This document shows, one piece after another, positions 6,141-62,263 of a DNA stretch of 64,000 nt. Both the position numbers and the translations under genes were made by a program. The notes below the pieces were generated by a model that did not search any database, was not told the origin of the DNA, and saw only the letters and a list, made by a program, of their open reading frames with translations. The first letter of the stretch is position 1, and the number at the start of each line of letters is the position of its first letter. Source of the DNA: Candidatus Nanopelagicales bacterium (GTDB lineage: Bacteria; Actinomycetota; Actinomycetes; S36-B12; UBA10799); contig JAWKJM010000007.1 in assembly GCA_041393775.1 (NCBI GenBank), positions 3,279 to 67,278 on the forward strand, read 5' to 3'.

Positions 6141-6220
6141 GGCGAGGTTAGAGAACGTGCACGAGGTTAGAGAAGCCACGCGTGCGTTCTCTAACCTCGT
6201 GCACGTTCTCTAACCTCGCC
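6141..6220. repeat. Family A repeat, copy A1: minimal 80-bp near-perfect palindrome
   Basis: The arm GGCGAGGTTAGAGAACGTGCACGAGGTTAGAGAA (34 nt) is followed by the centre GCCACGCGTGCG and then the exact reverse complement of the arm. Confidence 0.95.
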
Positions 6221-6361
6221 GCAATGTCACGTTGGAGTCACCCCGGCGGTTTGGCCAGCGGTGCCCCAACCTCGCTCCCGTGGCTCTAATCAACTGCGGC
6301 CGGCGCGAGAGGTCGAGCCTGTTCCCATGGCGTGCCGCCCCGCGTCGGGGAGAATCGGGAC

Positions 6362-7771
6362 ATGGGCGACCCGGCCGCAGTGGTTCCCGATCCGCGACGA
6401 TGGCGCATCCTCGGGGTCACGCTGGTCGTGGGGTTCATGACGCTGCTCGACGTCACGATCGTGAACGTCGCGCTTCCCTCGATCCAGGAAGGCCTGGACG
6501 CCTCCGCCGGCGCGGTGCAGTGGGTGGTGTCGGGGTACGCGCTCACGTTCGGGCTCACGCTGGTGATCGGTGGTCGGCTCGGGGACGTCCTAGGTCGCCG
6601 CCGGATCATGTCGATCGGGCTCATCGGCTTCGTCCTCGGATCGGCCGCGGTCGGATTCGCTCCGACCGCTGAGGTCGCCGTTGCGGCTCGCCTGCTGCAG
6701 GGGGCGGCAGCCGGACTGCTCACGCCGCAGAACTCGGGTCTGATCCAGGAGCTGTTCACCGGCCCGGAAAGGGGCCGTGCCTTCGGCGCCTTCGGTTTCA
6801 TCGTCGGCGTCTCGTCCGCGATCGGGCCCGTCCTGGGTGGTCTGATCATCGCTGCTTTCGGGGCGGAGCACGGTTGGCGCTACATCTTCCTGATCAACGT
6901 GCCGATCGGGTTGGTCGCCCTGTTCTTCATCGTCCGGACGGTCCCTGGCCGCCGGGAGCCGCACAGAGATCAGCCGCTGGACCTCGACATCGGTGGGGCC
7001 GTCCTGCTCGGGCTTGCCGTGCTGGCGCTGCTGTATCCACTGATCGGGACCATCGGGCACTCGGAGTGGGTCTTCCTGCTCTACCTCTTGGTCCCCGTCC
7101 TGGCCTGGGCCTTCATCCGCAGGGAATTCACCGTCGCCGCGCGAGGTGGCGCCCCCTTGCTCGAGGTGGATCTGCTCCGGGGGACCCCGGGGTACGCGAG
7201 CGGACTCACGATCGGGCTCATCTACTTCACGGGCTTCACAGGAATGCTGCTGGTGATCAGTGTCTGCCTGCAGGAGCAGTTCGGGTTGTCACCCTTGACC
7301 GCCGGGCTGCTGGTCACACCATTCGCAGCGGGCTCGGCGGTGGCAGCGCCGGTGGCCGGGCGCATGGTCACAGGTGTCGGACGCCGCCTCACGGTGGGTG
7401 CTCTGACCGTGATGCTGGTCGGCACGGTGTTGCTGCTGATGGTCGTTCCAGCGCCCGGCTCGGCCAGGTGGGTTCCATTTGCCGTCGCGCTTCTCATAGC
7501 TGGTCTGGGTGGTGGGGCGGTGATCTCGCCGAACTTCACGCTCACGCTGGAGAACGTTCCCACCCGGATGGCCGGGGCCGCCGGTGGAGCGCTGCAGACC
7601 GGTCAGCGGATCGGGACTGCCATCGGAACCGCCCTGCTTGCCTCGGTCTACCGTGAGGCGCTGGACCGAGGGGCTTCCGCGCAACTGGCCCTGCGGATCT
7701 CCCTGGTGGTGGCTTTCGTGCTGCTGTCGGCCGCACTGTTCGTGGCGGTCCGTGACTCACGCAGCGACTGA
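6362..7771 (+). CDS. MFS transporter (DHA2/EmrB-like, ~14 TM)
   Basis: The ORF is hydrophobic throughout. N-terminus RRWRILGVTLVVGFMTLLDVTIVNVALPSI and motif GGRLGDVLGRRR are present. Start taken at ATG 6362 (MGDPAAV). Confidence 0.85.
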   Translation: MGDPAAVVPDPRRWRILGVTLVVGFMTLLDVTIVNVALPSIQEGLDASAGAVQWVVSGYALTFGLTLVIGGRLGDVLGRRRIMSIGLIGFVLGSAAVGFAPTAEVAVAARLLQGAAAGLLTPQNSGLIQELFTGPERGRAFGAFGFIVGVSSAIGPVLGGLIIAAFGAEHGWRYIFLINVPIGLVALFFIVRTVPGRREPHRDQPLDLDIGGAVLLGLAVLALLYPLIGTIGHSEWVFLLYLLVPVLAWAFIRREFTVAARGGAPLLEVDLLRGTPGYASGLTIGLIYFTGFTGMLLVISVCLQEQFGLSPLTAGLLVTPFAAGSAVAAPVAGRMVTGVGRRLTVGALTVMLVGTVLLLMVVPAPGSARWVPFAVALLIAGLGGGAVISPNFTLTLENVPTRMAGAAGGALQTGQRIGTAIGTALLASVYREALDRGASAQLALRISLVVAFVLLSAALFVAVRDSRSD

Positions 7772-7859
7772 GGCCGGCACGGGTCACCAGCACCGCCAAT
7801 AAGGGGAGTCCCCGACCATACCGACCTCTGATCGCGGGCTCCTCCGTCTCGGCCGGGGC

Positions 7860-8765
7860 CTACCCATGAACGGTCGGCAATGAACCCGGCCCCCCGGTGG
7901 GTCTCACGCGCGCGTCAGCGGCTGTCGCCGAGATTCGCCGTGTTGGTTCAACCTTGAAGGTCGTGGTTTCCTGGCGAGCCGGCTCTTCCGGCAGCGCCGT
8001 CGGGTGTTGAGATTCGGTGGGTGGCGATGCGAGGGTGCGAGCGACGGCCGCGATTGCACGCGGGTTGCTCGCCAAGCCGTTGTGGGATCCGCTGATCCGG
8101 ATGTGGCCCGCCCCGCGCTGCAAACTGTATCTCCAGTAGACGACCCCGTCGCCGAGCGAGACCACCGATGTCAGCGGAACGGCCGCGGGCAACGGCTCCG
8201 CGAGGGCGGCCTCGACGCGGCTGGCGCAGTCACCGCGCAAGCAGTCGTCGTCGAGCAGATTCGGGGAGTCCCTGCGAGCGAGCGCCTCGGCTATCCGCAG
8301 GACGTGCGTGCTGGCCCCGAACTGGTGGCTCAGCGGACTACCCAGAGTGATCACCTGGCTCACCAGTTCCGGATGGCGGGCGGCGACCAGGCGGGCGAGC
8401 GTGCCTCCCCTGCTGTGCCCGACGATGGCTACCGGTCCGGTCACCGATGCGATGTCGACCAGGCGCCGCTCAAGCAGCTCGATCATCTCGGTCGTGCAGC
8501 CGACGTTGGCGCGGATCCCGCTCGGGAACGTCCGGAACCCAAGCCGGCGCAGGTGCCGGGCCATCGGTCGAAGGGACCAGTCCCCGGCCATGAATCCGGG
8601 GACGAGCAGCACCGGCACGCCCGCCGGCGGTTGCTCGCGTGGCGACGGCGCGGACAGGACCACCCGCCACAAGGCCGCCCACTCGCGCATCGCCAGGAAC
8701 GGGCGCGGCGTCCAAGGGGGCAGGGCGTCGATCGAGCCCGCCGCTTTCGCGGTAGCCGTGTTCAT
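7860..8765 (-). CDS. alpha/beta hydrolase (lipase/esterase-like)
   Basis: 301-aa ORF. Nucleophile elbow VGHSRGG and upstream LLVPGFMAGDWS are present. An AAGGAG SD lies 6 nt upstream of the ATG at 8765. Confidence 0.75.
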   Translation of the reverse strand: MNTATAKAAGSIDALPPWTPRPFLAMREWAALWRVVLSAPSPREQPPAGVPVLLVPGFMAGDWSLRPMARHLRRLGFRTFPSGIRANVGCTTEMIELLERRLVDIASVTGPVAIVGHSRGGTLARLVAARHPELVSQVITLGSPLSHQFGASTHVLRIAEALARRDSPNLLDDDCLRGDCASRVEAALAEPLPAAVPLTSVVSLGDGVVYWRYSLQRGAGHIRISGSHNGLASNPRAIAAVARTLASPPTESQHPTALPEEPARQETTTFKVEPTRRISATAADARVRPTGGPGSLPTVHG

Positions 8766-9042
8766 CGTGGACTCCTTTCCGTGCTCGTGGGTCCAACACG
8801 ATGCACGAACTCTCCCCGCGTACTGCGCAACCCGTCGGTGCGGCGACCGTCGACCGTAGCCGGTGCGCAGACGTTGGTCACTGTACTTCCGTCCCCGGAC
8901 GCGAAGAAGGAGGAGTCGGTATGGTGAGGCCGCGCATTCGGGGTGGGGTTCTTATCTGGAGGTAAGACAAAGCAGGTCGTGCCGCCCACCACGATGTGTG
9001 ATGGGCGGCACGACGCCGGACAACCGGCAGCTTGAACTGCGG

Positions 9043-10125
9043 TCAGGCGGACGGGTCGATGAGGACCTTGGCGTCCGTCGGGTTGGTGCCGAGGCGGGCG
9101 AAGGCATCGGCGACGCCGTCGAATCCGACCCTGCCGGTGATGAGCTCGTTCGCCTGGAGCTCACCGGATGCCAGATGTTGCAGTGTCTCGGCGAACTCCT
9201 GCGGGGAGTAGTAGAGACTGAACCGGATGTCCAGCTCCTTCAGCACCCCGTGTGCCGGCTCGATGGTGTCGGGGTCCAGGTTGATCCCTGCCACCGAGAT
9301 GCGCGAGCCCGCCGGGGCCCCCGCGATCATCTGCTGCAGCAGCCCGGGTGCGCCAGTGCACTCGAAGCCCACCGTCGGACGCAGGGGGAGTTGCCCGAAC
9401 ACCGCCGTTGGAGCGGCCATCCGCGCAGGGTCGTCGGTGGCCGCTGCCTGCATCCAGGCGGCGTACGGCGACTCCACAGCCGGGTCGACGACTACGTCGG
9501 CTCCCATCCGCTTGGCGAAGTCCCGACGCTCCTTCGACAGGTCGGCCGCGACGATCGGGCCGACTCCGCGCATCTTGAGCACGGCGATCACCGCCAGGCC
9601 GATCGGGCCGCAACCCATCACCAGCGGGACGTCGTCCCCCTCGGTGTCCACCCGGTTCACCGAGCGCAGCGCAACGGCCATCGGCTCGGTGAGTGCCGCG
9701 ATGTCGGTCGGCAGTTCGTCCGGAACCGGGATCAGCAGCGCCTCGGACAGAATCATCCGCTCTGCGTAGGCGCCCGGCGTGTCGGTGCCGCCGAAGCCGA
9801 TGAGTACCGGCTGCTGGCGCAGCAGCATCGGCATCGCGACCACGCGGGTGCCGACAGGGATCTGCTGCTGGGTCTCCGGTCCGTAGGACTCGACCTCGGC
9901 CACGTACTCATGTCCGAAGACGATCGGGCTGTTGAGGTCGATCATGTCGACGCCCAGCAGCGCCTGCGAGGCCCTGTTGAAGCCGTCACCGTGGGTGGCG
10001 CAGCTCTTGTCCGAGCCGCAGATGCCCGCGGCCAAAACCTTCACCACGACCTCCCCCGGGCCCGCGACGGGCTCGGGGATCTCCTGGACGCCGAGCGTGC
10101 CGTCCTGGAGGACGACCGCCCTCAC
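9043..10125 (-). CDS. Zn-dependent alcohol dehydrogenase (MDR family)
   Basis: Motifs MRAVVLQDG...PGEVVVKVLAAGICGSD and GHEYVAEV are present. The GTG start overlaps the stop of the upstream cupin gene (GTGA). Confidence 0.85.
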   Translation of the reverse strand: MRAVVLQDGTLGVQEIPEPVAGPGEVVVKVLAAGICGSDKSCATHGDGFNRASQALLGVDMIDLNSPIVFGHEYVAEVESYGPETQQQIPVGTRVVAMPMLLRQQPVLIGFGGTDTPGAYAERMILSEALLIPVPDELPTDIAALTEPMAVALRSVNRVDTEGDDVPLVMGCGPIGLAVIAVLKMRGVGPIVAADLSKERRDFAKRMGADVVVDPAVESPYAAWMQAAATDDPARMAAPTAVFGQLPLRPTVGFECTGAPGLLQQMIAGAPAGSRISVAGINLDPDTIEPAHGVLKELDIRFSLYYSPQEFAETLQHLASGELQANELITGRVGFDGVADAFARLGTNPTDAKVLIDPSA

Positions 10126-10685
10126 TTGCCAGCCTTGTCGGTGAAGTCAGCAGCTCCGCCACCGATGTAGCAGACCTCGCCCAGACCCTGTGCCTCGCTC
10201 AGCGCGCTGGTCAGGTGGGCGATGAGTGCCGCGTCGAGGATGGAGTGGAAGGTGCCGTCCTCGTTGAAGTTGACGTTGGCTCCGGTGACGCGGAACAGTA
10301 CGACGGTGTCCTCGGTGTTGTCGTCCGGAACCTTGAGCGTGTGCACGGACGCGCCGGGCTCGTAGAGGTAGGAGCCGGCGGTCTGCATCTGCTCGGGGTA
10401 CTCCACGTAGTGCCAGGCGCCACTCATCGTGAATGCGTCGACCGCGCCGGTGTGGTAGTGCAACGGCAGTTGCACGCCCGGGGCGAAGGTGGCCAGGATG
10501 ACCCACTCGCCGAGCTCGAGGTCGAGGCGCAGCGGCTTGTAGTGCACGCCCGGTCCGAGGGCGTCAGTGATCAGGGGGGAGTCGGTGGTGTCCACCGTCA
10601 ACAGCTCGCCCTGGGGCAGGGCGATCACCGGCAGAACGGTACCCGAAAGCGTGGAGGCCTGGGTGGGGTGGATGGCGAGGGTCAT
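10122..10685 (-). CDS. cupin-fold dioxygenase, 2,4'-dihydroxyacetophenone dioxygenase-like
   Basis: Cupin core HYHTGAVDAFTMSGAWHY...YEPGASVHTL. A GAAGGA SD precedes ATG 10685. The family assignment is by recall only. Confidence 0.7.
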   Translation of the reverse strand: MTLAIHPTQASTLSGTVLPVIALPQGELLTVDTTDSPLITDALGPGVHYKPLRLDLELGEWVILATFAPGVQLPLHYHTGAVDAFTMSGAWHYVEYPEQMQTAGSYLYEPGASVHTLKVPDDNTEDTVVLFRVTGANVNFNEDGTFHSILDAALIAHLTSALSEAQGLGEVCYIGGGAADFTDKAGK

Positions 10686-18248: not shown

Positions 18249-18539
18249 ATGACCGAGTACGGAAGCGTCGCCGAACGGCTGGCGCTCAACGCCTATCTGT
18301 TGGACGAGGAGCGCAGCCATATCGAGGTGAACCAGGAGATCGCCCGCCGAACGGGCACAGCGGAGCTGCTAGTGCGGATCTGCCCTGCGCACGTTTACGC
18401 GGAGGAACCTGACGGAACGATCTCCGTGGCCTACGCGGCCTGCATGGAGTGTGGTACCTGCCTGGCCGTGGCGGCTCCCGGATCTCTGACCTGGCACTAT
18501 CCCCGGGGTGGATTCGGAGTCGCCTTCCGGGAAGGCTGA
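18249..18539 (+). CDS. fixX: FixX ferredoxin-like protein
   Basis: Motif CPAHVY...CMECGTCLAV...WHYPRGGFGV. A GGAGG lies 5-6 nt upstream of ATG 18249. An alternative GTG at 18234 overlaps the fixC stop. Confidence 0.8.
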   Translation: MTEYGSVAERLALNAYLLDEERSHIEVNQEIARRTGTAELLVRICPAHVYAEEPDGTISVAYAACMECGTCLAVAAPGSLTWHYPRGGFGVAFREG

Positions 18540-18645
18540 TCACCGGGGGGTCAGGAGGAACGGGCGGGGTTGGGCCAAACCTGAACAGTCAATTCCGTCC
18601 TGTCCCACTGGACCTGGGTGTGGGCTTCGCGTTCTGCCTCGATGT

Positions 18646-18998
18646 GGCAAGAAAGTCTAGGGCGAGAACGGCTCGTGTACTCGGTCGCGGTAGAAGTGGG
18701 CTCTAGTCCGAAAATGGTTGGTGTACTCGGTCGCCGCAGAAGTGGGCCGCGGGGTTAGAGATTGGTCGCGAGGTTAGAGATTGTGCACGAGGTTAGTGAA
18801 TGCACGTGTGGCTTCTCTAACGTCGTGCACGTTCTCTAACGCGAGCGGTTTCGCCAGGCATCTTCCCGCCTGAACCATGGCCCGGGACGACTAACGCGAG
18901 CGGTTTCGCCAGGCATCTTCCCGCCTGAACCATGGCCCGGGACGACTAACGCGAGCGGTTTCCGCTCGGCATCTTCCCGCCTGCACGCCACTGCCGCG
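18646..18998 (-). repeat. Family A repeat, copy A2: 2 T-units + core + 3 S-units
   Basis: T-units lie at 18646-18741. The core with 5 copies of the 13-mer lies at 18743-18830. S-units lie at 18831-18998. Confidence 0.9.
18831..18940. repeat. Perfect 2 x 55-bp tandem duplication (S-units) inside A2
   Basis: GCGAGCGGTTTCGCCAGGCATCTTCCCGCCTGAACCATGGCCCGGGACGACTAAC occurs twice with no mismatch. A diverged third unit follows. Confidence 0.95.
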
Positions 18999-23792: not shown

Positions 23793-24082
23793 AGGTCGTG
23801 TACTTGGTGGCCGCAGGATTTGGCGGTTCTCTAGTCCGAAAATGGCTCGTGTGCTCGGTCGCCGCAGAAGTTGGCCGCGAGGTTAGAGAATGGTCGCGAG
23901 GTTAGAGATCGTGCACGAGGTTAGTGAACGCACGTGTGGCTTCTCTAACCTCGTGCACGTTCTCTAACCCGAGCGATCTCCGCCCGGCATTTCCCCGCAT
24001 GAACGCCGCGGCCGGCCACGGCCATGGACCACTAACGCCAGCGATCTCCGCCCGGCATTTTTCCGCTTGAACCGGCCGCCCA
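23793..24082 (-). repeat. Family A repeat, copy A3
   Basis: One partial and one full T-unit, a core at 23879-23968, and 1.5 S-units of the 68-bp variant. Confidence 0.9.
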
Positions 24083-31434: not shown

Positions 31435-31665
31435 CTCCGACTGGCAGCAGCATCGCCGTGCTGGCGACCAGGCGCGGACCCCCCGACGTTCTCGAGGTGC
31501 GGTCGCGGGGGGTGCCGCGACCGGCCCTTGGGACGTCGTAGTGCGGGTTCTGACGTGCACCGTCGTTCTCCCTGATGTGCAGGCCAGGTACGGCAAGACG
31601 CGATTCCCGCCCAAAGTGCCGTTCGTGCCCGGCTACTCCGTGGTCGGTGACGTGACGGACGTTAG
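31431..31665 (+). pseudogene. 5' remnant of an MDR (quinone oxidoreductase/ADH-like) gene, frameshifted and truncated
   Basis: It opens MTPTGSSIAVLATRRGPPDVLEVRSRG. After a run of six G (31509-31514) the homologous sequence continues in another frame (GPWDVVVRVLTCTVVLPDVQARYGKTRFPPKVPFVPGYSVVGDVTDV). It then stops being MDR-like exactly where repeat A4 begins (GTTAGTC at 31661). Confidence 0.6.
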
Positions 31666-32003
31666 TCATCCAAGGCCGCGGCCGTTCGGCGGGAAGATGC
31701 CGGCCCGGGATCGCTCGCGTTGGTCATCCATGGCCGTGGCCGGCCCCCTTTCAGGCGGGGAAATGCCGGGCGAAATCGCTCGGGTTAGAGAACGTGCACG
31801 AGGTTAGAGAAGCCACACGTGCGTTCACTAACCTGGTGCACATTCTCTAACCTCGCGGCCAACTCCTGCCGCTACCGAGTACACCAGCCATTTTCGGACC
31901 AGAGAGGGTGCACGAGGTTGGAGAAGTCACACGTGCGTTATCTAACCTCGCGGCCCACTTCTGCGGCGACCGAGCGCACGAGTCGATTTCGGACTGGCTC
32001 GGC
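31661..32003 (+). repeat. Family A repeat, copy A4: 2 S-units + core + T-unit + second partial core + T-unit
   Basis: It starts with GTTAGTCATCC directly at the truncation point of the MDR remnant. Six 13-mer copies are present. Confidence 0.9.
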
Positions 32004-35653: not shown

Positions 35654-35766
35654 GCGCCGGGCTGCGGGCCTGAACACAGTCACGGGGTCTTCGGGAAGCC
35701 TGCGGCGTTACATGCGTCGTTCGGGTCTGCCAGTGTGGTGTTCATACCTCAAAGTTGGGGGTCGCC

Positions 35767-38757
35767 ATGCCTGAGCCATTGGTCCCAGGGGTGCTGGAGT
35801 TGCGGGTCCACGGCGTGTCCGGAACCCCGCCGCACGAGATGCTGGGCGTCCCTGCCTCGGACGTGGGTCAAGTGGCCGGTGACCGGCTCACCGGCTTGTA
35901 CCGATGCCGAAAAGGCACTCCGTACGGCGTGACCTTGCCATCCTTCGCAGCCGTCGAAGCGTACTCGTGGGGAGCGCTGACGTCAGGGGCCGCAGGATTC
36001 CTCGGGTGGGTGCGACGAGCAGCCTGGCTGACGCTGTTGCCTTTCGCCCTCGGAAATCTCTCGTACTGGGCCCGGCCGGAGCTCGATGTCGATACCGGGA
36101 CCCGCAAGGCCACCGCCATGGTCGTGCGAGTCGCGTGTCTGCTGCTGACCCTGCTGCTGATCGCCGGCTTGTGCCTGGTCGGCATCGACTTGGTGGCGTG
36201 GCAGTGCTTCCGGGGCGGGGCGATGGTGTGCCCTTCGCTGCCGTCAGTCCTGCAGTTCCTGGACCGACCCCCCTGGGACAGCACGACCCGGCGTGTGCTG
36301 GCCGGATCCTTGTTGCCGCTGTCGGCGCTGGGCGGGCTGTGGTTCCTGTCCCGGCAATCGATGGCCCGGTACGAGGAGGTGGTTCCGCAGCCGGTGGCGC
36401 AGCCCCAGAAGTCGCAGATTCTGAGCCGGCGCAGGATGTGGAACGGCAACGACCGGACCCATCGTCTGCAACGGCTACATCTTGCGGCCGGCGCAGCAGT
36501 CGTCGTGGTGTCGGGCTCTTTCCCGCTGGCCGATCTTGGCGGGACCTCCCACGAGCGGGGCTTGGCGCTGATCGGCCTGCTCGCGGCGCTGGTGGTGCTC
36601 CTGGCGACCGTCGCCGTCGCGATGAGCTATCAGGACGGGATCGACTTCCCAGGCAGGCTCGAGGAGGCAGGACGGGGAAGGAAGGCGGCCAGCCACGCGG
36701 CCCGGTTCGTGGGCTGGGGCGTTGTGGTGCTGCTTGCGGCATACGGCTATCTGCTCTTCACAGCCACCACGGACGAGAGTTCAGATCAAGCCGGCCCGCT
36801 ACGTGGCCACAACCTGATCGTCGGCGTGCTCCTGTTCGTGCTGCTGGCGTGCGTGGCTTGGCTGGTCTTCGCCTCAGACCGGCCGTGGGTCGCCCTGCTC
36901 ATCCCGCTCGCGCTACTCGGGATCTCGCTCGGGGTCTTCCGACGGTGGTGGTGGCCCGTGGCAGGGTTGACGCTCGCGGTGGTGGTGCTCGGCCTGTGGA
37001 TTCAGCATCGCCGTTCGGATCCCGAGGCGGACAAGCCACGGGCCTGGCATGGCGCGGGGGCGGCCGTGATCCTGGGGGCGGCGGTGTGGATCGCGGCGAT
37101 CTTCACCACCTCGACCACGGTGCTGGCCGCCGACTGGTTCAACGGCGGCGGGCAATCGGTGGCTGATCTGCAGGCAGGCTTCCGTGAGGATGCTTCGCCA
37201 GGTGCTCGTGCCGCGCAGTTGCAGACGGACCAGCCGCTGCTCGCCGCCAGCGGCCCGGTCGCGATCGAGCGCGCCGCGGTCAGTATCGACGCAAAGGGCG
37301 TGGTCACCGTGTGGTCGGGAACGCTGTCGGTGGACGCCCTGGCGGCGGCCCGTGCGGTCGAGGGAGTCAGTCATCAGGTGCCCGGTCTGGACCTGGCCGC
37401 GGGCAGGGTCCTCGTGATGGATCCGCCGGTGAGACTGCTCGACAGTTGCGTCAGCGCCGGCAGCGTCTCCGGGGAGACTCCGATTTGTTCCGACCGGGCC
37501 TTCGGGGGATCGGACACTGTTGGCACGTCCGGTGAGTATGTGGCTTCCGGGACGCTGACGCCGCAGGGACCCGTCCAAATCCGGGCGACCGAGCCGGGCG
37601 GTGTGCATGTCGGGGTGGTGAAGGTGCCACAGGAACCATTGATCGTGCCGCAAGTCCTCGTCTGGTTGGCACTGGCGATGCCAGCGTGGCTGCTGGCCAC
37701 CATCGTCACGTCGTTGTTGTGCTTCCTGTACTTCCGGCGCCGGGCCCGGGCTGCTGTTGTCGAGCAGACCATGTTCGATGCCGTCGTCGGAGTGTTTCGG
37801 CGGGGGAGCACGAAGGCGAGGCTCACAGCCGGATTCACCCATCGCGCGGAGCGTCTCCTCGGCCTCTTCGGTGCGATCACGTCGGTCACGGCGGTGGCGG
37901 TGATGATCGGCGCTTCGACCGGATCGCCGCCGTGGCAGGGGTACGAGCCACTGCGGAGTGTGGCGGTCATCGGTCTCTGGACGGCCCTCGGTGTGTCAGC
38001 CGGACTGATCGCGGTGGCGGCCCGGCTGCAGAAGTCGGAAGGTGCTCGACGGGCAGTCGGGGTGCTCTGGGACCTCAGCACGTTCTGGCCCCGGGTCGCC
38101 CACCCACTCGGTCCGCCCTGCTATGCGGAGAGGGTCGTGCCGGAGATCACCTCCAGGATCGGTTGGGCGTCCGGCCTGGGAGCGAACGTCGTCCTCTCAG
38201 GACACAGCCAGGGCTCACTGATCGCAGTGGCGGCGGTAGCGCAGTTGGGTGACGACGAGGTTGAGAAACTGCGTGTGGTGACCTACGGCTCGCAGTTGCG
38301 AACCTGGTATGGGCGCATCTTCCCGGGAGTCCTTGGACCCGCAGTCATCGGGAACCACCCATTGACCCACCGGGCAGGTTTCGGCAGTGCCGCCCCGGAC
38401 GCGCCGGATACCGGTGGGCCGGATGACCCCGCACCCCCAGGGTTCCCCGTCGCTCCAGGGAGTCTGGCCGCCCGGCTGGCCATCGGGTCGGTCGCACCGC
38501 ATTGGGTCAATCTCTTCCGGCGCACAGATCCGATCGGATTCCGCGTGTTCTCGGACCAGCAGTGTCGTGTCGACCGGTACGTCAGCGAGTACTCGCCCGG
38601 GTCCGCCGGTGACCCGGCTCCAAGCCTTCAGACCCACAGCCGCTACCAGTTCGCGGACGAATATCAGGGGGTCGTGGAGAACTGGTACCGGGAGCCCGGT
38701 TACTCGCACGGCGACGTGGGCAAGGTCTGCCGGATCGACTTCCTCGTTCCGGACTGA
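35767..38757 (+). CDS. 996-aa polytopic membrane protein with putative split alpha/beta-hydrolase (lipase-like) fold
   Basis: The N-terminus has LRVHGVSGTPP (35809-). At least 10 predicted TM helices follow, with a ~150-aa soluble insert. The C-terminus has VVLSGHSQGSLIAV (Ser codon 38206-38208), RRTDPIG and QTHSRY. Confidence 0.7.
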   Translation: MPEPLVPGVLELRVHGVSGTPPHEMLGVPASDVGQVAGDRLTGLYRCRKGTPYGVTLPSFAAVEAYSWGALTSGAAGFLGWVRRAAWLTLLPFALGNLSYWARPELDVDTGTRKATAMVVRVACLLLTLLLIAGLCLVGIDLVAWQCFRGGAMVCPSLPSVLQFLDRPPWDSTTRRVLAGSLLPLSALGGLWFLSRQSMARYEEVVPQPVAQPQKSQILSRRRMWNGNDRTHRLQRLHLAAGAAVVVVSGSFPLADLGGTSHERGLALIGLLAALVVLLATVAVAMSYQDGIDFPGRLEEAGRGRKAASHAARFVGWGVVVLLAAYGYLLFTATTDESSDQAGPLRGHNLIVGVLLFVLLACVAWLVFASDRPWVALLIPLALLGISLGVFRRWWWPVAGLTLAVVVLGLWIQHRRSDPEADKPRAWHGAGAAVILGAAVWIAAIFTTSTTVLAADWFNGGGQSVADLQAGFREDASPGARAAQLQTDQPLLAASGPVAIERAAVSIDAKGVVTVWSGTLSVDALAAARAVEGVSHQVPGLDLAAGRVLVMDPPVRLLDSCVSAGSVSGETPICSDRAFGGSDTVGTSGEYVASGTLTPQGPVQIRATEPGGVHVGVVKVPQEPLIVPQVLVWLALAMPAWLLATIVTSLLCFLYFRRRARAAVVEQTMFDAVVGVFRRGSTKARLTAGFTHRAERLLGLFGAITSVTAVAVMIGASTGSPPWQGYEPLRSVAVIGLWTALGVSAGLIAVAARLQKSEGARRAVGVLWDLSTFWPRVAHPLGPPCYAERVVPEITSRIGWASGLGANVVLSGHSQGSLIAVAAVAQLGDDEVEKLRVVTYGSQLRTWYGRIFPGVLGPAVIGNHPLTHRAGFGSAAPDAPDTGGPDDPAPPGFPVAPGSLAARLAIGSVAPHWVNLFRRTDPIGFRVFSDQQCRVDRYVSEYSPGSAGDPAPSLQTHSRYQFADEYQGVVENWYREPGYSHGDVGKVCRIDFLVPD

Positions 38758-44189: not shown

Positions 44190-44340
44190 GGGTCACATGA
44201 TGCCCTGAGTGGATCGCGTCATATCTTGCGCAACGCCAGCGAGATCCAACTCCGCGTCCTGCCTGCCGGCTCACAACCCCGCTGGCGCGAAGTTGACGCG
44301 ACCAGGCGGGCGGCTCGCGGGACTGCACCAGTTCGCACAC

Positions 44341-44575
44341 GGTTCGTGTGCTGCGGAGTTGGCTGTTCTCTAGTCCGAAGATGGCTGGTGCACTCGGTCG
44401 CCGCAGAAGTGGGCCGCGAGGTTAGAGAATGGTCGCGAGGTTAGAGAACGTGCACGAGGTTAGTGAACGCACGTGTGGCTTCTCTAACCTCGTGCACGTT
44501 CTCTAACGCGAGCGATTTCCGCCCGGCATTTTCCCGCCTGAACGGGTGGCCGGCCACGGCCCGGGACGGCCACCT
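44341..44575 (-). repeat. Family A repeat, copy A5
   Basis: Partial and full T-units, a core at 44417-44508, and one S-unit. Confidence 0.9.
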
Positions 44576-44655
44576 GCGCCTGCGCGTAGAAGAAGGGATC
44601 GGACGCAGACTGCGGATCCCGGGCTGCTTTGATGCGCGCCAGCCACAGGTCGCAG

Positions 44656-45401
44656 TCACCGCAGGCGGGCCCGAACGTCCGTTTGGCTCCCACCCCGGAA
44701 GTCGAACTGGCCGGTGCTCAGGATGACCTCCTCGCCGTCAGCGAGCATCAGGACCTCCACCGTGTGACGGCCAACCTTCTGGTTGCATTGGATGTATGCG
44801 TACGACGCGGTGAAGTTCTCGGAGTAGATCCGGCCCCACATCCAGTAGTCGATCACGCTCTGGAACGGGAAGTCCAGCCAGTTGTGGTCGTGATAGCCGA
44901 TGCCCGTGACCCGGTGGGTCTGCGCACCATCCCGGATCGTCCCCTCGACGGCGGCGCGTGCGAACGGGATCACCCAGCCGAAGGAGCCCAGATCGCCGAA
45001 ATGCGAAAGACCCGTCCCGGGTTTCCAGCCGTTGACCTGTGCCCGATAGGTGAGTCGGCAGGCGAGATCCGGCTCTTCCACGACGATCTCGTATCCGGGA
45101 AGCTCACCCGGCTTGTGCTCGACCCGCAGTGTGTTGCCGCCGATGGTGACTTCGGCTTTGTCCCGGGCGGCCGAGAAACTCGACGTGGGGTGGGGAAGGA
45201 TTTCTGGACCCCGTGGCCGTCCGGCCTGAGCAGCACCACCTCGATGCCCGTCTTCCCCTTCCGTCCCGGATTGGTGTTGGAGGCGTGGAAGAAGACCACG
45301 ATCGTATGCCCGCTGTCCAGGTGAGCGTCGAAATGCCACCATTCGTAGAGACCCCGCTTGCCCATGTCGATAGGGAGTCCGTCGTCAGCCGGCTGCAGCA
45401 C
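44656..45401 (-). pseudogene. CrtC/AttH-like (hydroxyneurosporene-synthase-family) gene with an apparent frameshift
   Basis: The N-terminal part (LYEWWHFDAHLDSGHTIVVFFHASN...) is in the frame of ORF 44970..45401. The remainder (AEVTIGGNTLRVEHK...GYHDHNWLDFPF...YWMWGRIY) is in the frame of ORF 44656..45342. The switch lies near TTCCCCACCCCA (~45195), which contains C-runs. Confidence 0.55.
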
Positions 45402-45663
45402 TTCGATGTGGGACCCCTGCCGGCCGGGCCGGTCCGACCTTCGATGACCGCAGTCAGATCGGCCATGCGCGACTCGTCAAGTGGAGGCAGTCTCCGGCCT
45501 CCGTTGCACTCAAAAGCCTGTTTGAGGGCTTGATCGAATTCTCCCACTTCCGGGACTCTCGGGTCAGCGTCACGCGCACGTGGCTGCAGGGAGGGCAGCC
45601 GTCTGACGAGTGTGTCCGGGGCCGGCACTTAGTGTCAGCGCCGGCACCCGCACGTGCTACTGG

Positions 45664-46359
45664 TCAGTCCGGCCACACCCCTGTCCCGAACAGGTGGTAC
45701 GTCGGGTCGAAGCCGACCCGGCTGTTGAGTTCGAGGATGATGGCCGGGACCATCGCCTGGACGATGTACTCGTAGTCGTCGGGCGTGCCGACTAGTCGTT
45801 GGAGGGCGAGGATCCTGCTGTCTCCTTGGCGCTCGATCTTCAAGGTCAGAAGGTCGCTGCCGCCGGGGTCCTGAACACGGGCTGTCCCGCTGCCCAGTTC
45901 ATGCTGCTTGGCCCGCATCCAGGCGCGCACCCTGCCCGCCAGTTCCAGGGAGATGTCGACGGTGGACATCGCGCCGATCCCATGCCAACCGATCCGGGCG
46001 ACCTGCTGGTTCTCGCGCAGCACCATCGTGCCGTGCAGGCTCTGCTTGATGCTCAGCCACATGGACTGCAAATCCCAGACCTGGGCGCTGCGTCCCCCCG
46101 GCGCCCAGGAGCCCTGAACGACCCAGCCGACCTGCGTGCCGGCCCCATCTAGCACCGGCCAGTGGTTGCCGGCTTGTACGACATAGCGCAGGAGTCCGGA
46201 CCGCAGGCCCAGGCCGTCCGCCGCCGGTGGTTCCGGCCACGTGGGCGCGTCTTCAGCGGCCTGCCCTGCGTCGGCGACAGCTTCGGTCCACCGCTGGCCG
46301 TCCCAGTAGCGCAACTCGTGCCGACCGCTGGGATCGGGCAGCCAGGAAGCGTCAACCAT
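45664..46359 (-). CDS. DUF2510-domain protein with beta-rich C-terminal domain
   Basis: The N-terminus WLPDPSGRHELRYWDGQRWTE matches the DUF2510 signature. Confidence 0.7.
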   Translation of the reverse strand: MVDASWLPDPSGRHELRYWDGQRWTEAVADAGQAAEDAPTWPEPPAADGLGLRSGLLRYVVQAGNHWPVLDGAGTQVGWVVQGSWAPGGRSAQVWDLQSMWLSIKQSLHGTMVLRENQQVARIGWHGIGAMSTVDISLELAGRVRAWMRAKQHELGSGTARVQDPGGSDLLTLKIERQGDSRILALQRLVGTPDDYEYIVQAMVPAIILELNSRVGFDPTYHLFGTGVWPD

Positions 46360-46444
46360 GGATGCACCTTACGATGTCGCGCGCGTCTTCACTCCTCCCC
46401 GGAGTGGGGGAACGCCGGGTGAAGATCCACCGGGTTCGCGTCGG

Positions 46445-46686
46445 GCATCCGCGTCCGGGGCCGATCGCGGCGTTCAGGAGGGAGAATGCCGGGCGGAAAC
46501 CGCTCGGGTTAGAGATCGTGCACGAGGTTAGAGAAGCCACACGTGCGTTCTCTAACCTCGTGCACGATCTCTAACCTCGCGACCATTCTCTAACCTCGCA
46601 GCCCACTTCTGCGGCGACCGAGTACACGAGCCATGATCTCTAACCTCGCGGCCAACTCCCGTGGCCACCGAGGACACGAGCCATCG
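46445..46686 (+). repeat. Family A repeat, copy A6
   Basis: One S-unit and a core. Four TCTCTAACCTCG copies lie on the right side, followed by two T-like units. Confidence 0.9.
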
Positions 46687-46716
46687 ACGGTCTGGGCCCG
46701 CAGGTCGGCGCCGGGA

Positions 46717-47748
46717 TCACGCTGGAAGGTATGCGGCCAGTGCCTCGAGTAGGGCGGGACGATCCCCGAACGGCAGCGCGATCAGAGTGTCGACGCCGCA
46801 GTCCGCGTAGGCGGTCAACTGACCCTCCAGCGTGGCTGGCGTGGCGGGGATGGCCGCCAGGTCGATCAACTCGGGGGTCAGCGCGGCGGCCGCGGCCAGT
46901 TTGTCGCCAGCCAGGAAGGCCTGCTGGCAGGCGCTGGCCGCGTCACCAAGTCCGTACCGGCCTGCAAGCTCGACGTAGAAGTTCTTGTCCTTCGCGCCCA
47001 TCGCCCCGAAGTAGAAGGTCAGGATCGGGCGGAGCAGGTCGCGTGCGGCTTCGGTGGTTTCAGCCAGTGCGATGGGGACGTTGGGTGCGATGTTGACGTC
47101 CTCCCGCCGGCGTCCGGCAGCGGCGATGCCGTCCAGGAGGGGCCGGTTGAGCATGTCGGCGTACTGCGGGCTGTAGAAGGCCGGCAGCCAGCCGTCGGCG
47201 ATCTGCCCGCATTGATGGACGGTCTTCTCGCCCATCACACCGAGGTAGATGGGGATGGTGTCCTGCACCGGGCGGCCGATCATCTTCAGGGGCTTACCGA
47301 GGCCGAGCCCGCCGGCCAGGTTGGGCAACTGCCAGTGCTTTCCCTCGTACTGCACCGGCGCATGGGACCACGCGAGCCGCACGATATCGATGTACTCCCG
47401 AGTGCGTCCCAGCGGCGAGACGAAGGGGACGCCGTACCATCCCTCGGAGACCTGTGGCCCGGACAGGCCCAGGCCCAGCATCACACGGCCGCCTGAGAGT
47501 TGATCGAGGGTCGAGGCCGCCGATGCCGCTGTCGTCGGCTGGCGTGCGGGTATCTGCATGATCGCGGCTCCCAGCCGGATGCGCTGCGTCGCGCCGGCCA
47601 GCATCCCCAGCACTGCGGTGGCGTCCTGGCCCCAGGTCTCCGCGACCCACGCGCTGTGGAAGCCGAGGTCGTCGGCCAACTGCGCGAGGCGGATCTGCTC
47701 GTCGAGCCGAATCCAGGGTGCATATGCCAATGAAACGGCCAGGTCCAT
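46717..47748 (-). CDS. LLM-class (luciferase-like) F420-dependent oxidoreductase
   Basis: Sequence LAQLADDLGFHSAWVAETWGQDA...GGRVMLGLGLSGPQVSEGWYG. A GGAGG SD precedes ATG 47748. Confidence 0.85.
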   Translation of the reverse strand: MDLAVSLAYAPWIRLDEQIRLAQLADDLGFHSAWVAETWGQDATAVLGMLAGATQRIRLGAAIMQIPARQPTTAASAASTLDQLSGGRVMLGLGLSGPQVSEGWYGVPFVSPLGRTREYIDIVRLAWSHAPVQYEGKHWQLPNLAGGLGLGKPLKMIGRPVQDTIPIYLGVMGEKTVHQCGQIADGWLPAFYSPQYADMLNRPLLDGIAAAGRRREDVNIAPNVPIALAETTEAARDLLRPILTFYFGAMGAKDKNFYVELAGRYGLGDAASACQQAFLAGDKLAAAAALTPELIDLAAIPATPATLEGQLTAYADCGVDTLIALPFGDRPALLEALAAYLPA

Positions 47749-55052: not shown

Positions 55053-55065
55053 GCCCCCCGCGCGG

Positions 55066-56882: not shown

Positions 56883-56910
56883 GGTCGGACGGGACATCAG
56901 TGCGGAATCC

Positions 56911-58614: not shown

Positions 58615-58735
58615 AGGATGCCTCTCTGGTCGGTGCCTGGATCGAGGGGCGATCTGGCGCGGCGACCCCGGCGCGGCGCTGCTCGAGCGTCCTCTCGACC
58701 CTACTCTCCGGCCTGGTCGGTCGTCCCACGCGTCG

Positions 58736-59980
58736 TCAGCCGGATCCTGCCTGGACGAGTGCGGCGAGGGGTGTGTGCAGATCGGCCAGGGCTTGGAGGT
58801 CGACCTCCCGGCCGGACTCCACCAGTGCCTTGATGTCGTCGATCACGTCCCAGATGTTGACCGCCATGCCGGCCAGCACACGGCCCTGCCCCACCCAGAA
58901 TGCAACGAACTCGCCGCTGTCCGGGTCACCCCGGAAGACCACTTGGTCGTATCCTCCGGGCTCGACATGACCCGCGTACTCCATTCCGAGGTCGTACTGA
59001 TCGGTGTAGAAGTAGGGAGTCCGGTCGTAGACCGCCTCGATGCCGAGCATGGACCGGGCAGCCACCGTCGGCTGGTTGAGCGCATTCGCCCAGTGCTCCA
59101 CCCGGATGCGCTTGTTCAGTCGGGGGTGGAACGCGCTGGCGACGTCACCGGCGGCGAAGATGTCCGGGTCGGATGTCCGGAGGTGCTCGTCGACCACGAT
59201 GCCGTTGTCCACCGGGAGACCGGCCGACTCGGCCAGTTGCACGTTCGGGGTGATGCCTACGCCGATCAGCACGAGGTCCGCGGGGATGATGCTGTTGTCG
59301 GAGAGGCGCACACCGGTCACCGTGCCGTTCTCGCCGACCAGTTCCGCCACATTGACACCCAGGCGCAGGTCCACGCCGTTGCGGGTGTGTAGATCGGCGA
59401 ACACCTGCGCGACCTCGTCGCCCAGCACCCGCTGCAGGGGCAAGTCCGCCGACTCCAGGACTGTGACATCGACACCTGCGTGGCGGGCGGCCGCGGCTAC
59501 TTCCAGACCGATCCAGCCGCCGCCGATGATAGCGACGCGCCCGCCGCGTTCCAAGGCTGCGCGAATGCGCTCACTGTCTGGCAGCCGGCGCAGGTACGCG
59601 ATCCCGTCGAGGTCACTTCCGGGGATGGCCAGGGTCCGTGGTGATGAGCCGGTGGCCAGGAGTAGTTTGTCGTACCCGACGCGGGCGCCACCGGACAACA
59701 CAACCTCGTGGGCGGCACGATCGATGGCGGAGGCCGTGGCCCCCAGCCGCAGGTCCACGTTGTGCTCGGAGTACCAGTCATCATTGTGGACGAAGACCTT
59801 CTCGCGTTCGCTCTCCCCGCGGAGGAACTCCTTGGACAGCGGCGGTCTCTCGTAGGGTCGGTCTGCCTCGTCGCCGATGAGCGTGATCGCTGCGTCGAAC
59901 CCCTCCGCGCGCAGCGCCTCAGCCGCCTTTGCACCGGCGAGGCCGGCTCCCACGATGACCATGCGCGACGGGTTGCTCAT
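58736..59980 (-). CDS. FAD/NAD(P)-dependent ferredoxin reductase-like oxidoreductase
   Basis: Motifs MVIVGAGLAGAKAAE, VAIIGGGWIGLEVAA and FAAGDVA are present. A GAGGAG SD precedes ATG 59980. Confidence 0.8.
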   Translation of the reverse strand: MSNPSRMVIVGAGLAGAKAAEALRAEGFDAAITLIGDEADRPYERPPLSKEFLRGESEREKVFVHNDDWYSEHNVDLRLGATASAIDRAAHEVVLSGGARVGYDKLLLATGSSPRTLAIPGSDLDGIAYLRRLPDSERIRAALERGGRVAIIGGGWIGLEVAAAARHAGVDVTVLESADLPLQRVLGDEVAQVFADLHTRNGVDLRLGVNVAELVGENGTVTGVRLSDNSIIPADLVLIGVGITPNVQLAESAGLPVDNGIVVDEHLRTSDPDIFAAGDVASAFHPRLNKRIRVEHWANALNQPTVAARSMLGIEAVYDRTPYFYTDQYDLGMEYAGHVEPGGYDQVVFRGDPDSGEFVAFWVGQGRVLAGMAVNIWDVIDDIKALVESGREVDLQALADLHTPLAALVQAGSG

Positions 59981-60102
59981 TCTCACGACTCCTCGATTGG
60001 TCCAGAGGTTGATGGTTTCACGGGTCGGCTGTCCGCGCCACGGTCGCCCGGCGTTGATGTCCGAACGACTGGGGTCCGTCCCCTCGAGCCGCACGAAGCC
60101 CG

Positions 60103-60217
60103 GTGTGACGACGTTGTGGGGGTCCGGACCGGACTGTTACGAAGGTGCGGGGTCGCGCCGGCTCGGACCACCCACCTTCGTAACGCGACGGAGTAGTGGC
60201 AAGCACCTTCGTCACAA
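60103..60217. repeat. Family B repeat, B10
   Basis: Arms GTGTGACGACGTTG, TGTTACGAAGGTGCG, CCACCTTCGTAACG and GCACCTTCGTCACA. Confidence 0.9.
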
Positions 60218-60308
60218 TCGTGTCCACCGTCGGCTTCAACGGGTGGTCGTCAGCCCTGTGGATTGACACGAACAAGGGCTCGGCGGAAACCGGTTCCCCA
60301 GCGGCCGG

Positions 60309-60788
60309 CTAGTCCGTCTGAGAGGCGCGCCCGCCGTCAGGCGTTCCGGCCTCGCCGTGTTCATAGATGGACACGGCCTGGTCCACAGCGTCCAGCAACT
60401 CCAGGCCCGCTTCGGCGGCAGTGCGTGCCTGTGAGATCCGTTCGGCCCAGGTGGCCGTGTACGTCGGCCCCACCTTGACCATTTGGTGCACGACGGTGTT
60501 GCGGCGCTCGGCCCACTCGAGGACGCGCTGCGCGAGCTCGCTGAAGGTGTCCGGATCCATCGACCGCGAGAGTTGTGCCAGTTGCCCGAGGCTGTTCATC
60601 GCCACCTGGTCCTTGTGCATCCCCAGCAAGTCCTCGAGGCGATCGCTGATCATCGAATCCAGCACGGCCACCGCTTCGATGTAGTAGCCGGCCGCCATTG
60701 CCGTCGCAACATGCTCCCGGGCGGCTCTGTGCAACTGCGCCCGCAGTTCCTGATCGTCGCGACGGGGGGAGCGGATGGACTTCGGCAC
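60309..60788 (-). CDS. all-helical hypothetical protein with RNxxxH motif (possible HEPN fold)
   Basis: 159-aa ORF with a GTG start and no SD (possibly leaderless). WAERRNTVVHQM contains R-N-x3-H. The HEPN assignment rests on this single motif plus the helical character. Confidence 0.5.
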   Translation of the reverse strand: MPKSIRSPRRDDQELRAQLHRAAREHVATAMAAGYYIEAVAVLDSMISDRLEDLLGMHKDQVAMNSLGQLAQLSRSMDPDTFSELAQRVLEWAERRNTVVHQMVKVGPTYTATWAERISQARTAAEAGLELLDAVDQAVSIYEHGEAGTPDGGRASQTD

Positions 60789-60888
60789 TGTTGCAGGCTA
60801 AACCCGGGTGCGGCTGGGGAACGGACGGGGCCGACAGGGACCGCTTCAAGGGCGCACAATGGTTATGTGGCACTCGGTGGGAGTGGAC

Positions 60889-61284
60889 ATGGCCTTGGAG
60901 AGAGAGGTCGCGATGAATGAGAACCCCGACACGCGCAGGCAACGGGCGGCGGAAGCCCTGGCGGCGCTGGGAATGCACCGATCCGATCACCAACGACTCA
61001 GCGTCCAGTGCGCTCGCAGTCACCACCTGGCGGGCGTGTATGAGACCGACGCCGGTTTGGTCTATGCCGCGATCGAAGGCCCACACGCGCACGGGTCCCG
61101 GGACCGGGTGGACACCGCACACCATGGAGGTCCGCGCGGCACCGAATATGCAGACATGCTCGCGGGGGATGCGATGAGTGATGACGGTCTGCCTGCCTGG
61201 TGCGACTGCGGATCGCACACCCTGTCCCGGGCAGGTTTGCTCAGCGAGGTGGAGTCCGGGTCGCGAACGGTCCACATCCCCTAG
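60889..61284 (+). CDS. Cys/His-rich hypothetical protein
   Basis: QCARSHH ... WCDCGSH could form a Zn site. A GGGAG SD precedes ATG 60889; an alternative is ATG 60913. Its stop lies 7 nt upstream of the PRTase start. Confidence 0.55.
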   Translation: MALEREVAMNENPDTRRQRAAEALAALGMHRSDHQRLSVQCARSHHLAGVYETDAGLVYAAIEGPHAHGSRDRVDTAHHGGPRGTEYADMLAGDAMSDDGLPAWCDCGSHTLSRAGLLSEVESGSRTVHIP

Positions 61285-61291
61285 GCGACCC

Positions 61292-61924
61292 ATGGGATTC
61301 ACGAATCGCGACGATGCGGGCAATCGCCTCGCCGTTGCCGTAGAGCGGTTCCGCGGGGCGGACGTCGTTGTGCTCGGGCTGCCGCGAGGCGGTGTCCCTG
61401 TGGCGGCCCGAGTCGCGGCGGCTTTGGACGCTCCGCTGGACGTGATCGTGGTGCGCAAACTCGGTATGCCGGGTCAGCCCGAACTGGCGATGGGGGCCGT
61501 CGGCGAGGACGGCGTGATGGTGCTCAACGATGATGTCCTCTCGCGCGGCCGGGTCAACGCCGCGCAGTTGTCCGCAGTGCAGGCGCGGGAACGCGAGGAG
61601 GTCATCCAACGGGCACGACGGTTCCGCGGCGAGAACCGGCGGATTCCGCTCGAGGGTCGCACCGCAGTGATCGTGGACGACGGACTCGCCACAGGTGCCA
61701 CCGCCCGGGCCGCCTGCGCGGTCGCCCGGGCCCACGGGGCGGCCAGGGTGATCCTGGCAGTTCCGGTCGGGGCTGCGGACACGGTCGCCGCGCTGCAGGA
61801 TGTGGCCGACGAGGTCGTATGTCTTAGCACGCCCGCGCACTTCTGGGCGGTGGGGCAGGAGTACGAGGACTTCAGCCAGGTCCCGGACGCCGACGTAGTG
61901 CGCCTTCTGGCAGGTGGGGCCTGA
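61292..61924 (+). CDS. phosphoribosyltransferase-fold protein
   Basis: PRPP-binding loop VIVDDGLATGATARAA. The N-terminus reads FTNRDDAGNRLA...VVVLGLPRGGVPVA. Confidence 0.8.
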   Translation: MGFTNRDDAGNRLAVAVERFRGADVVVLGLPRGGVPVAARVAAALDAPLDVIVVRKLGMPGQPELAMGAVGEDGVMVLNDDVLSRGRVNAAQLSAVQAREREEVIQRARRFRGENRRIPLEGRTAVIVDDGLATGATARAACAVARAHGAARVILAVPVGAADTVAALQDVADEVVCLSTPAHFWAVGQEYEDFSQVPDADVVRLLAGGA

Positions 61925-62020
61925 TCGATTCTCGGTCGCGCCTACCAGGGCTGCTTTGTGCGGCGCCGGCGTTTGGTGGTGAGCAGGGCCCTTCAGTGTC
62001 GGTCAGGTGCCCACGTAACG

Positions 62021-62263
62021 GTCAGACATCCGCGGCGTTCAGGGCGGGCGGCTCAGGCGCGGAAGTGCCGGGCGGAGATCGCTCGCGTTAGTCCTCCTGG
62101 GCCGTGGCCTGCCGCCCGTTCAGGCGGGGAAATGCCGGGCGGAAATCGCTCGGGTTAGAGAACGTGCACGAGGTTAGAGAAGCCACACGTGCGTTCACTA
62201 ACCTCGTGCACGATCTCTAACCTCGCCGCCAACCCCTGCGGCTACCGAGTCTTCGGACTAGAC
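62021..62263 (+). repeat. Family A repeat, copy A7
   Basis: Two S-units, a core at 62154-62224, and a shortened T-unit ending CGGACTAGAC. Confidence 0.9.

Follow-up and report, generated by a model that had tools for sequence, protein, structure and literature searches.

Dispersed palindromic repeats built from regularly spaced GTTAG sites in the genome of an uncultured actinobacterium

What kind of element recurs, in both orientations, at seven intergenic positions within one short stretch of an actinobacterial genome? The stretch, hereafter called the window, comprises 64,000 nucleotides of contig JAWKJM010000007.1 (assembly GCA_041393775.1, Candidatus Nanopelagicales bacterium); it has a G+C content of about 66% and a monotonic cumulative GC skew. 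A first-pass annotation, made from the sequence alone, had reported in it seven loci sharing a composite repeat and had proposed three explanations: a non-autonomous mobile or BIME-like element, an array of binding sites for a single DNA-binding protein, or a family of structured RNAs. The sequences were read and aligned, and all seven intergenic loci were found where that annotation had placed them (elements e1 to e7; Table 1). We regard the elements as a probable, though far from certain, case of a lineage-specific, non-coding, non-autonomous family of dispersed palindromic repeats, similar in kind to MITE (miniature inverted-repeat transposable element), REPIN, BIME and BOX repeats and residing in a high-GC uncultured actinobacterium represented by a metagenome-assembled genome (MAG). 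The family is previously undescribed; it lies outside the definition of REP repeats and, as it appears, outside that of classical MITEs. The demonstrated part comprises the repeat family, its anatomy, its lineage restriction, its conserved spacing and the parallel change of its two arms.

Anatomy of the repeat family

The motif CGAGGTTAGAGAA was found 27 times in the window with at most one mismatch, where 0.02 matches are expected by chance, and all 27 lie within the seven loci. When up to two mismatches were allowed, the 12-mer gave 34 matches, 32 of them within the loci; the two solitary matches outside compare with 1.4 expected by chance. The number of about 35 iterations of a 13-mer, given in the first-pass annotation, holds only if degenerate copies are counted. 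Matches of the S, T and core units (see below) obtained by blastn-short in the window were likewise confined to the seven loci, and Tandem Repeats Finder detected arrays of period 19 (2.7-3 copies), a 55-bp S array in e2 (2.7 copies, 96% identity) and a 50-bp T array in e6. Altogether, the window contains eight kernels in 64 kb, and 39 of its 44 GTTAG/CTAAC pentamers fall inside the elements, which occupy 1,786 bp or 2.8% of the sequence. Outside the elements this pentamer is very rare, with five occurrences in about 62 kb where composition predicts about one per kb, and the related loci L044, L061, L063, L065, L066 and L068 contain 0-2 per 10-20 kb; this rarity is probably a consequence of the codons TTA, CTA, TAG and TAA being avoided where the genome is rich in G+C.

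A full element, read in the direction from T through the core to S (orientation A), has the order (T)n, a-b-c, centre, c'-b', (S)n, in which a, b and c are 13-mer sites at 19-bp spacing and c' and b' are inverted copies of them. The core is a dyad-symmetric kernel of 68 nt, in which the GTTAG/CTAAC pentamers are spaced by exactly 19, 25 and 19 bp in all seven elements; a third site, where present, adds another 19-bp step to this series, and between the innermost GTTAG and CTAAC the distance is always 25 bp. The spacing of 19-20 bp proposed previously is thus corrected to exactly 19 bp. The centre of the core is CGCACGTGTGGC, with an ACGCGT variant in e1. The core is predicted to fold as a hairpin with about 34 bp per arm, and RNA folding predicted the same kernel stem in the seven elements on either strand, with an energy of -72 kcal/mol for e1.

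The S units, of 55-68 bp, begin after CTAAC and finish in GACTAAC, and the T units begin with CTCTAGTCC, which is a right-arm site in degenerate form; those of e6 begin with 13-mers (one exact, one with a single mismatch), resulting in a 50-bp period. It had been claimed that every unit boundary carries a degenerate version of the 13-mer: the boundaries do carry GTTAGTC or CTAGTCC, which match the 13-mer only weakly, and a near-complete 13-mer (one mismatch) stands at one T boundary of e6. A placement of the S and T boundaries on the 19-bp lattice was rejected, since their spacings of 48-68 bp fall off it. At its outer S end a full element reads 5'-GTTAGTCATCC, at its outer T end 5'-TCTAGTCCGAA, and degeneracy is greatest in the outermost units. 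Because T shows patchy similarity to the reverse complement of S (TAGTCC...ATGGC.CGTG), the whole composite can be read as one long, decayed palindrome. The composite organization proposed at first applies to most of the loci, with two amendments: e1 consists of a core only, and e4 holds an additional partial core.

Conservation differs between these parts. Among the window copies, mean identity of the kernel is 95.7% (range 91-100%), the kernels of e3 and e7 being identical, and that of the inner S and inner T units is 83.9% and 85.1%, respectively. Two of the tandem S units of e2 are 100% identical, indicating a recent unit duplication.

Independent short-read data were used to assess whether the repeats could be an assembly or chimera artefact, the source being a MAG and short-read contigs breaking at the repeats. 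Logan contigs from four runs (SRR28338159, SRR32022410, SRR28338172 and SRR28338156) are interrupted within e2, e5 and e6; the first, third and fourth of these runs encode window-identical proteins, and SRR32022410 a 99% FixC variant. The matching contigs are 1-4 kb long, and several terminate within one of those three elements: e2 is present in contigs L001 and L043, both of which break in its T unit, L059 ends in the core of e5, and L059 and L060 start in e6. These contig ends indicate that the repeats are real and disruptive to short-read assembly, and a density of about one copy per 9 kb explains the shattering of short-read assemblies into contigs of about 2 kb. Moreover, the junctions between unique flank and repeat are identical in independent runs (L001, L043, L059 and L060), and the copies have unique flanks and differ from each other in point substitutions and unit number. 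An artefact is therefore extremely improbable. In one of these contigs (L059 1930-2076, from SRR28338172) the S/core region of e5 is 95.9% identical to window positions 44434-44580 while the unique sequence is identical; this mismatch reflects either a difference between strains in the repeat or the passage of the short-read path through a different copy.

Occurrence in related genomes and conservation of the spacing

Searches of databases and literature agreed with the earlier statement that the repeat does not belong to a described family. Rfam covariance models gave no match in the window at gathering thresholds, and at an E-value threshold only spurious matches of miRNA precursors to the hairpin (E 0.1-0.5). 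No match to the repeat was found by blastn in plasmids and phages; the exact 24-mer core gave none in JGI metagenomes and viral contigs, and a spacing-only pattern none in viral contigs. Concatenated translations of the repeat, compared with a set of 5.8 billion proteins for spurious open reading frames (ORFs) over other copies, returned no matches, and the repeat strings gave none in the literature searched. A looser inverted-pair pattern found five matches in metagenomes, of which only one (L057) was a true relative.

Eight loci from related genomes (L044, L061-L066 and L068; 128 kb in total), anchored on FixC or PPTase orthologues with 80-88% identity, were then compared with the window. 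The repeat family gave no blastn match in these 128 kb, and a hidden Markov model (HMM) of the kernel, built with hmmbuild from an ungapped alignment on the GTTAG positions and run with nhmmer, detected a single array in them, in L064. In L044, which represents the closest other species (about 82-86% nucleotide identity over etfA/flavoprotein/fixC/fixX), synteny reaches the fixX stop codon and stops exactly where e2 begins (window 18539-18646; L044 4267). The orthologous site downstream of FixX carries no element in L044, and the end of synteny at e2 indicates that the repeat marks the boundary of a rearrangement or of an insertion or deletion. The sequence upstream of the PPTase gene differs among all relatives compared.

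The two related arrays allowed the parts of the core to be compared over a larger distance. L057 is a metagenome contig (WPCK01162680.1, 67% G+C) with an array at 2230-2500, directly past the stop codon of a small membrane-protein gene. This array consists of a T-like stretch, the series GTTAGACGTTGTCCAC GAGGTTAGAGAA ACCACGTGTGTG TTCTCTAACCTC GTGGACAACCACTAAC and an S-like unit ending in GATGACCAAC. Its innermost sites are identical to those of the window, and its outer sites and spacers are altered in parallel on both arms (GTGCAC/GTGCAC to GTCCAC/GTGGAC). L064 (GCA_964267805.1), whose PPTase is 85% identical to that of the window, has its array between the end of one gene and cmk, at 1205-1330. 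Here, four direct GTTAGT(C/G)(C) sites face GGACTAAC, GGACTCAC and GGACTAAC, with a spacing series of 19, 19, 19, 25, (19), 19 bp. The 19/25/19 spacing is thus also present in L057 and L064, although the sequence between the motifs differs greatly. In L064 the arms are only 72% complementary, and the spacers vary among the units of the one array but the GTTAGTCC sites are conserved; this same site is the motif found at the S and T boundaries in the window. These comparisons indicate that the spacing and the pentamer are kept while the rest turns over, and that the extended site is uniform across the units within a lineage.

Changes in paired positions of the two arms were analyzed next. Within the window, most substitutions in the arms (such as those of e2 and e4) lack a compensating change, and at the position pair 9/60 both A-T and T-A occur, with A.A as the intermediate. 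When L057 was added, four position pairs were found to change on both arms; only 2-3 of 500 column shuffles reached the observed values, and partners slid by 1-3 columns, used as a control, scored far lower. This indicates that dyad symmetry has been maintained. The covariation fits a hairpin of single-stranded DNA or RNA and a symmetric recognition of duplex DNA equally well.

These data bear on the proposal of an RNA role, according to which the kernel hairpin, alone or together with S and T, would act as a terminator, an mRNA 3'-end stabilizer, a processing site or a small RNA gene; terminator, stabilizer or processing roles have been proposed for REP, BOX, ERIC and Correia elements. The very stable hairpin predicted on both strands of all seven elements and the paired arm changes seen with L057 would be expected of it, and so would the position of most full elements beyond gene ends: e2, e3, e4, e6, e7 and the L057 array lie 30-230 bp downstream of stop codons. 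On the other hand, the elements occur both ways relative to transcription, a scan of positions 44200-46800, which span e5 and e6, revealed neither a sigma-70-like promoter nor a U-tract terminator, Rfam gave no match, substitutions in the arms of the window copies are mostly uncompensated, the arms of L064 are complementary to a limited degree, and the covariation is equally explained by symmetric protein binding to duplex DNA. We therefore consider an RNA role quite unlikely, and structured RNA is the weakest of the three explanations put forward at first.

A second proposal is that a chromosomal protein (a nucleoid-associated protein or a global regulator, for example) binds the GTTAG sites, which would be kept for DNA organization or transcription, their spread being secondary. 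In favor of such a host function are the spacing kept in three diverged versions, the conservation of sites and not of spacers in L064, the conservation of the kernel above that of S and T, the position of e1 in a divergent promoter region and the near confinement of the GTTAG pentamer to the elements. However, solitary sites are no more frequent than expected by chance, the arrays are almost entirely missing from the 128 kb of related loci, and the genes flanking the elements have, by protein family scans, no common function. Furthermore, whole composites of 200-350 bp, including S and T, are 84-96% identical between loci, which argues for copying and not for an independent evolution of operators. 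An array maintained for the host is thus unlikely, if less so than the RNA role, and an array of binding sites as such is compatible with mobility.

Comparison with known systems and a possible mode of spread

Taken together, the high local density, the near absence from relatives, the unrelated contexts, the random orientation, the composites shared between loci and the recent tandem duplications point to a dispersed selfish repeat, so that the non-autonomous mobile or BIME-like element is the favored one of the three original explanations. In architecture the nearest counterparts of the family are clusters of the BIME/REPIN kind and modular repeats like BOX, and in the arrangement of its sites it is nearest to the end arrays of Tn7/Tn402-type transposons. 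To our knowledge, interspersed palindromic repeats have been well studied in Proteobacteria and Firmicutes but have received little attention in Actinobacteria; none have been described for this freshwater and soil clade, which is known mainly from MAGs.

As in the RAYT-mobilized BIME, REP and REPIN repeats of E. coli, Pseudomonas and Stenotrophomonas, the elements are abundant, extragenic, palindromic and mostly located downstream of genes; they form modular clusters of variable unit number, with inverted pairs making a long hairpin. Their abundance in a particular lineage, typical of selfish DNA, is a further feature in common with REP-type repeats (PMC3733652). REPs, however, are single palindromes of 20-40 bp with an unpaired GTAG or CGTC tag (PMC3733652, in which Actinobacteria are not mentioned), whereas the 19-bp unit GAGGTTAGAGAACGTGCAC is not self-complementary, a palindrome arises only at the level of the whole core, and the conserved GTTAG pairs with CTAAC of the opposite arm, with no conserved GTAG or CGTC. 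Since the unit is not self-palindromic and lacks the unpaired tag, the elements fall outside the definition of REP; in addition, no RAYT was seen among the approximately 50 window proteins scanned.

BOX of Streptococcus pneumoniae has the structure boxA-(boxB)n-boxC, and Correia, ERIC and RUP are other modular MITE-like repeats. With BOX-type repeats the elements have in common three types of module, a variable copy number of modules, an intergenic location, strong predicted hairpins and the absence of coding capacity. They differ from them in sequence, in that the invariant part is central and not terminal, and in having a core that repeats a single short site at fixed spacing; moreover, no target-site duplications (TSDs) or clear terminal inverted repeats (TIRs) were found. 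Regarding the latter, the outer ends share only TAGTC(C/A), the strong inverted repeat being internal. As no TSD or clear TIR was found, the elements do not appear to fit the definition of a classical MITE either.

The ends of Tn7, Tn5090/Tn402, Tn5053 and Tn552 are arrays of inverted sites of about 20 bp bound by the transposase (PMC8649781). The elements resemble Tn7/Tn402/Mu-type ends in having two to four direct sites of 19-bp period that face inverted copies. In contrast to these ends, the facing arrays lie 12 bp apart instead of being separated by kilobases of cargo, with an invariable inner distance of 25 bp; e1 has no 5'-TG...CA-3' termini (the nearest TG/CA are asymmetric by 1 nt) and its flanking 5-mers differ, and no gene for a DDE transposase and no tnsB- or tniA-like gene is present in the window.

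Based on these likenesses, a mode of spread can be proposed in which the kernel of 68-80 bp would be the recognition platform of a protein that copies or moves the element. The mobilizing protein would probably bind the kernel as a multimer, by analogy with the transposases of the Tn7/Tn402/Mu group and their arrays of sites. A multimeric protein reading the sites is also suggested by the conserved 19/25/19 spacing, by the contrast between sites and spacers in L064 and by the lineage-wide co-variation of the extended site. S and T would be flanks, bounded by weaker GTTAGTC or GGACTAG sites, that grow and shrink by tandem duplication, and any effects on the host, through hairpins in transcripts or cruciforms in DNA, would be by-products. 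We infer both the mobility of the element and its binding by a protein; as to the enzyme class of the mobilizer, our proposal amounts to a guess.

Several observations weigh against such a dispersed, non-autonomous repeat. Transposase genes are missing among the window proteins; inspection revealed no convincing TIR at the outer ends (a similarity of 5-6 bp) and no TSD at the boundaries of e1, e2, e4, e6 and e7. Nor was a clean pair of filled and empty sites obtained from the FixC and PPTase neighborhoods of the relatives, since synteny breaks at the relevant points. The fixed inner distance of 25 bp would be unexpected for a simple two-ended miniature transposon with free internal length, and the higher conservation of the kernel over S and T would be unexpected under neutral decay from a master copy. 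Finally, the spacing appears conserved from the sequences of two relatives only.

It is conceivable, and we advance it tentatively, that the conserved object is the spacing itself (19 bp within the facing arrays and 25 bp at the dyad), which would have persisted in three or more diverged lineages of high-GC actinobacteria and would serve as platform for a multimeric DNA-binding or DNA-processing protein not yet described. Such a protein may belong to a new, clade-specific transposition or recombination system, or to a domesticated one that organizes intergenic DNA. The invariant 19/25/19 spacing of GTTAG is in any case a searchable signature, which could lead to the recognizing protein and possibly to a new mechanism of mobilization, and the varying unit numbers between copies provide a ready marker for strain typing; if the family is merely another selfish hairpin repeat, its value is mainly descriptive.

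Other candidates were considered and rejected. The iron box of IdeR/DtxR, TTAGGTTAGGCTAACCTAA, has 19 bp and adjacent half-sites, with the starts of GTTAG and CTAAC 6 bp apart. The elements share with it the AGGTTAG and CTAACCT half-sites and the 19-bp length, but their GTTAG and CTAAC are 25 bp apart and reiterated, and CCCGTTAGTCC of L064 does not fit, so the resemblance was deemed coincidental. Integron attC sites (GTTRRRY / RYYYAAC) were discarded because GTTAGAG fails the final Y, the elements occur in both orientations among ordinary genes, at intervals of 2-13 kb, and no integrase was found in the window. With parS only CACGTG is in common, and this is not found in L064; the DnaA box is represented by a chance TTGTCCAC in L057. 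The DosR box and CRISPR were likewise rejected.

The individual elements and their surroundings

The coordinates and organization of the elements are given in Table 1. Orientation A is on the plus strand in three elements and on the minus strand in another three, with no bias relative to the direction of replication, and the gene pairs surrounding the seven intergenic elements include divergent, co-directional and convergent ones.

Table 1. Position, organization and genomic context of the seven repeat elements (coordinates of the window; strand is that of orientation A; MFS, major facilitator superfamily).
Element	Position	Strand	Kernel	Organization	Context
e1	6141-6220	.	6147-6214	Core only; 80-bp palindrome, perfect 34-bp arms, 12-bp centre GCCACGCGTGCG	Between divergent PPTase and MFS genes
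e2	18646-18998	+	18773-18840	2 T, a-b-c, centre, c'-b', 3 S (55, 55 and ~48 bp)	After fixX, ahead of a co-directional gene
e3	23793-24082	+	23901-23968	Partial T and full T, a-b-c, centre, c'-b', 68-bp S, degenerate S	~30 bp past the stop of a minus-strand gene
e4	31661-32003	-	31784-31851	On the + strand: S, S, kernel, T, partial second core (31901-31956), T	Between co-directional plus-strand genes
e5	44341-44575	+	44440-44507	Degenerate T and full T, a-b-c, centre, c'-b', 1 S	
e6	46445-46686	-	46508-46575	On the + strand: S, kernel, site a', 2 T of 50-bp period	~30 bp past the stop of a minus-strand gene
e7	62021-62263	-	62154-62221	On the + strand: S, S, kernel, shortened T	Between convergent genes

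Two elements show peculiarities at their ends. Both arms of e1 are of the T-side type (GCGAGGTTAGAG...), and 6-8 bp of T sequence (CGCCGC) are left on one side; it may be that one arm is a copy of the other. The outer T end of e7 (62255-62290) carries a small palindrome, CCCCGGGGTACCCGGGG, between GGACTAGA and GGACTATC; this palindrome resembles a small insertion by which the terminal GGACTA motif of the element was duplicated.

The approximately 50 proteins encoded in the window were scanned with Pfam and NCBIfam, and correspond to ordinary metabolic and regulatory genes, among them those for a fused acyl-CoA carboxylase, FixABCX, a rifampin monooxygenase, a WS/DGAT and a DEAD-box helicase. 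No transposase, integrase, RAYT or Y1/HUH enzyme was found among them, in accordance with the first-pass annotation, which had noted the absence of the first three. Unrelated to the repeats, an ORF of 1000 amino acids at 35755-38757 showed only a weak match to the TgpA_N domain and no NCBIfam match; genes for a DUF4389 protein and a multicopper oxidase are located near it.

Two other kinds of hairpin were encountered during the searches. Among the matches listed for the pattern GAGGTTAGAGA-N6-10-GAGGTTAGAGA, applied to a genome collection, were unrelated hairpins of 7-nt (AGAGGTT)n repeats, in Bacteroidota, Planctomycetota and others, which were discarded as relatives. These hairpins (AGAGGTT / TCAGAGG / TTAGAGG arms), often just past a gene end, are represented among the matches listed as L002-L042, L054, L055, L056 and L058 (for example, L055 981-1016, L018 7213-7287 and L019 1901-1976), and they come from many unrelated genomes, of Bacteroidota, Planctomycetota, Cyanobacteria, Acidobacteriota and one Methanosarcina; the GGTTAGAGA common to these hairpins and the 13-mer of the window is due only to the search pattern, which required it. 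The other is a perfect hairpin with a stem of 20-22 bp and a 4-nt loop (...GGGA-NGCT-TCCC...), a pattern not present in the window, which occurs at L061 23-66 and 134-177, as a tandem pair, and at L064 4486-4533, with the conserved flanks CAGCCCGAC...TTCG.

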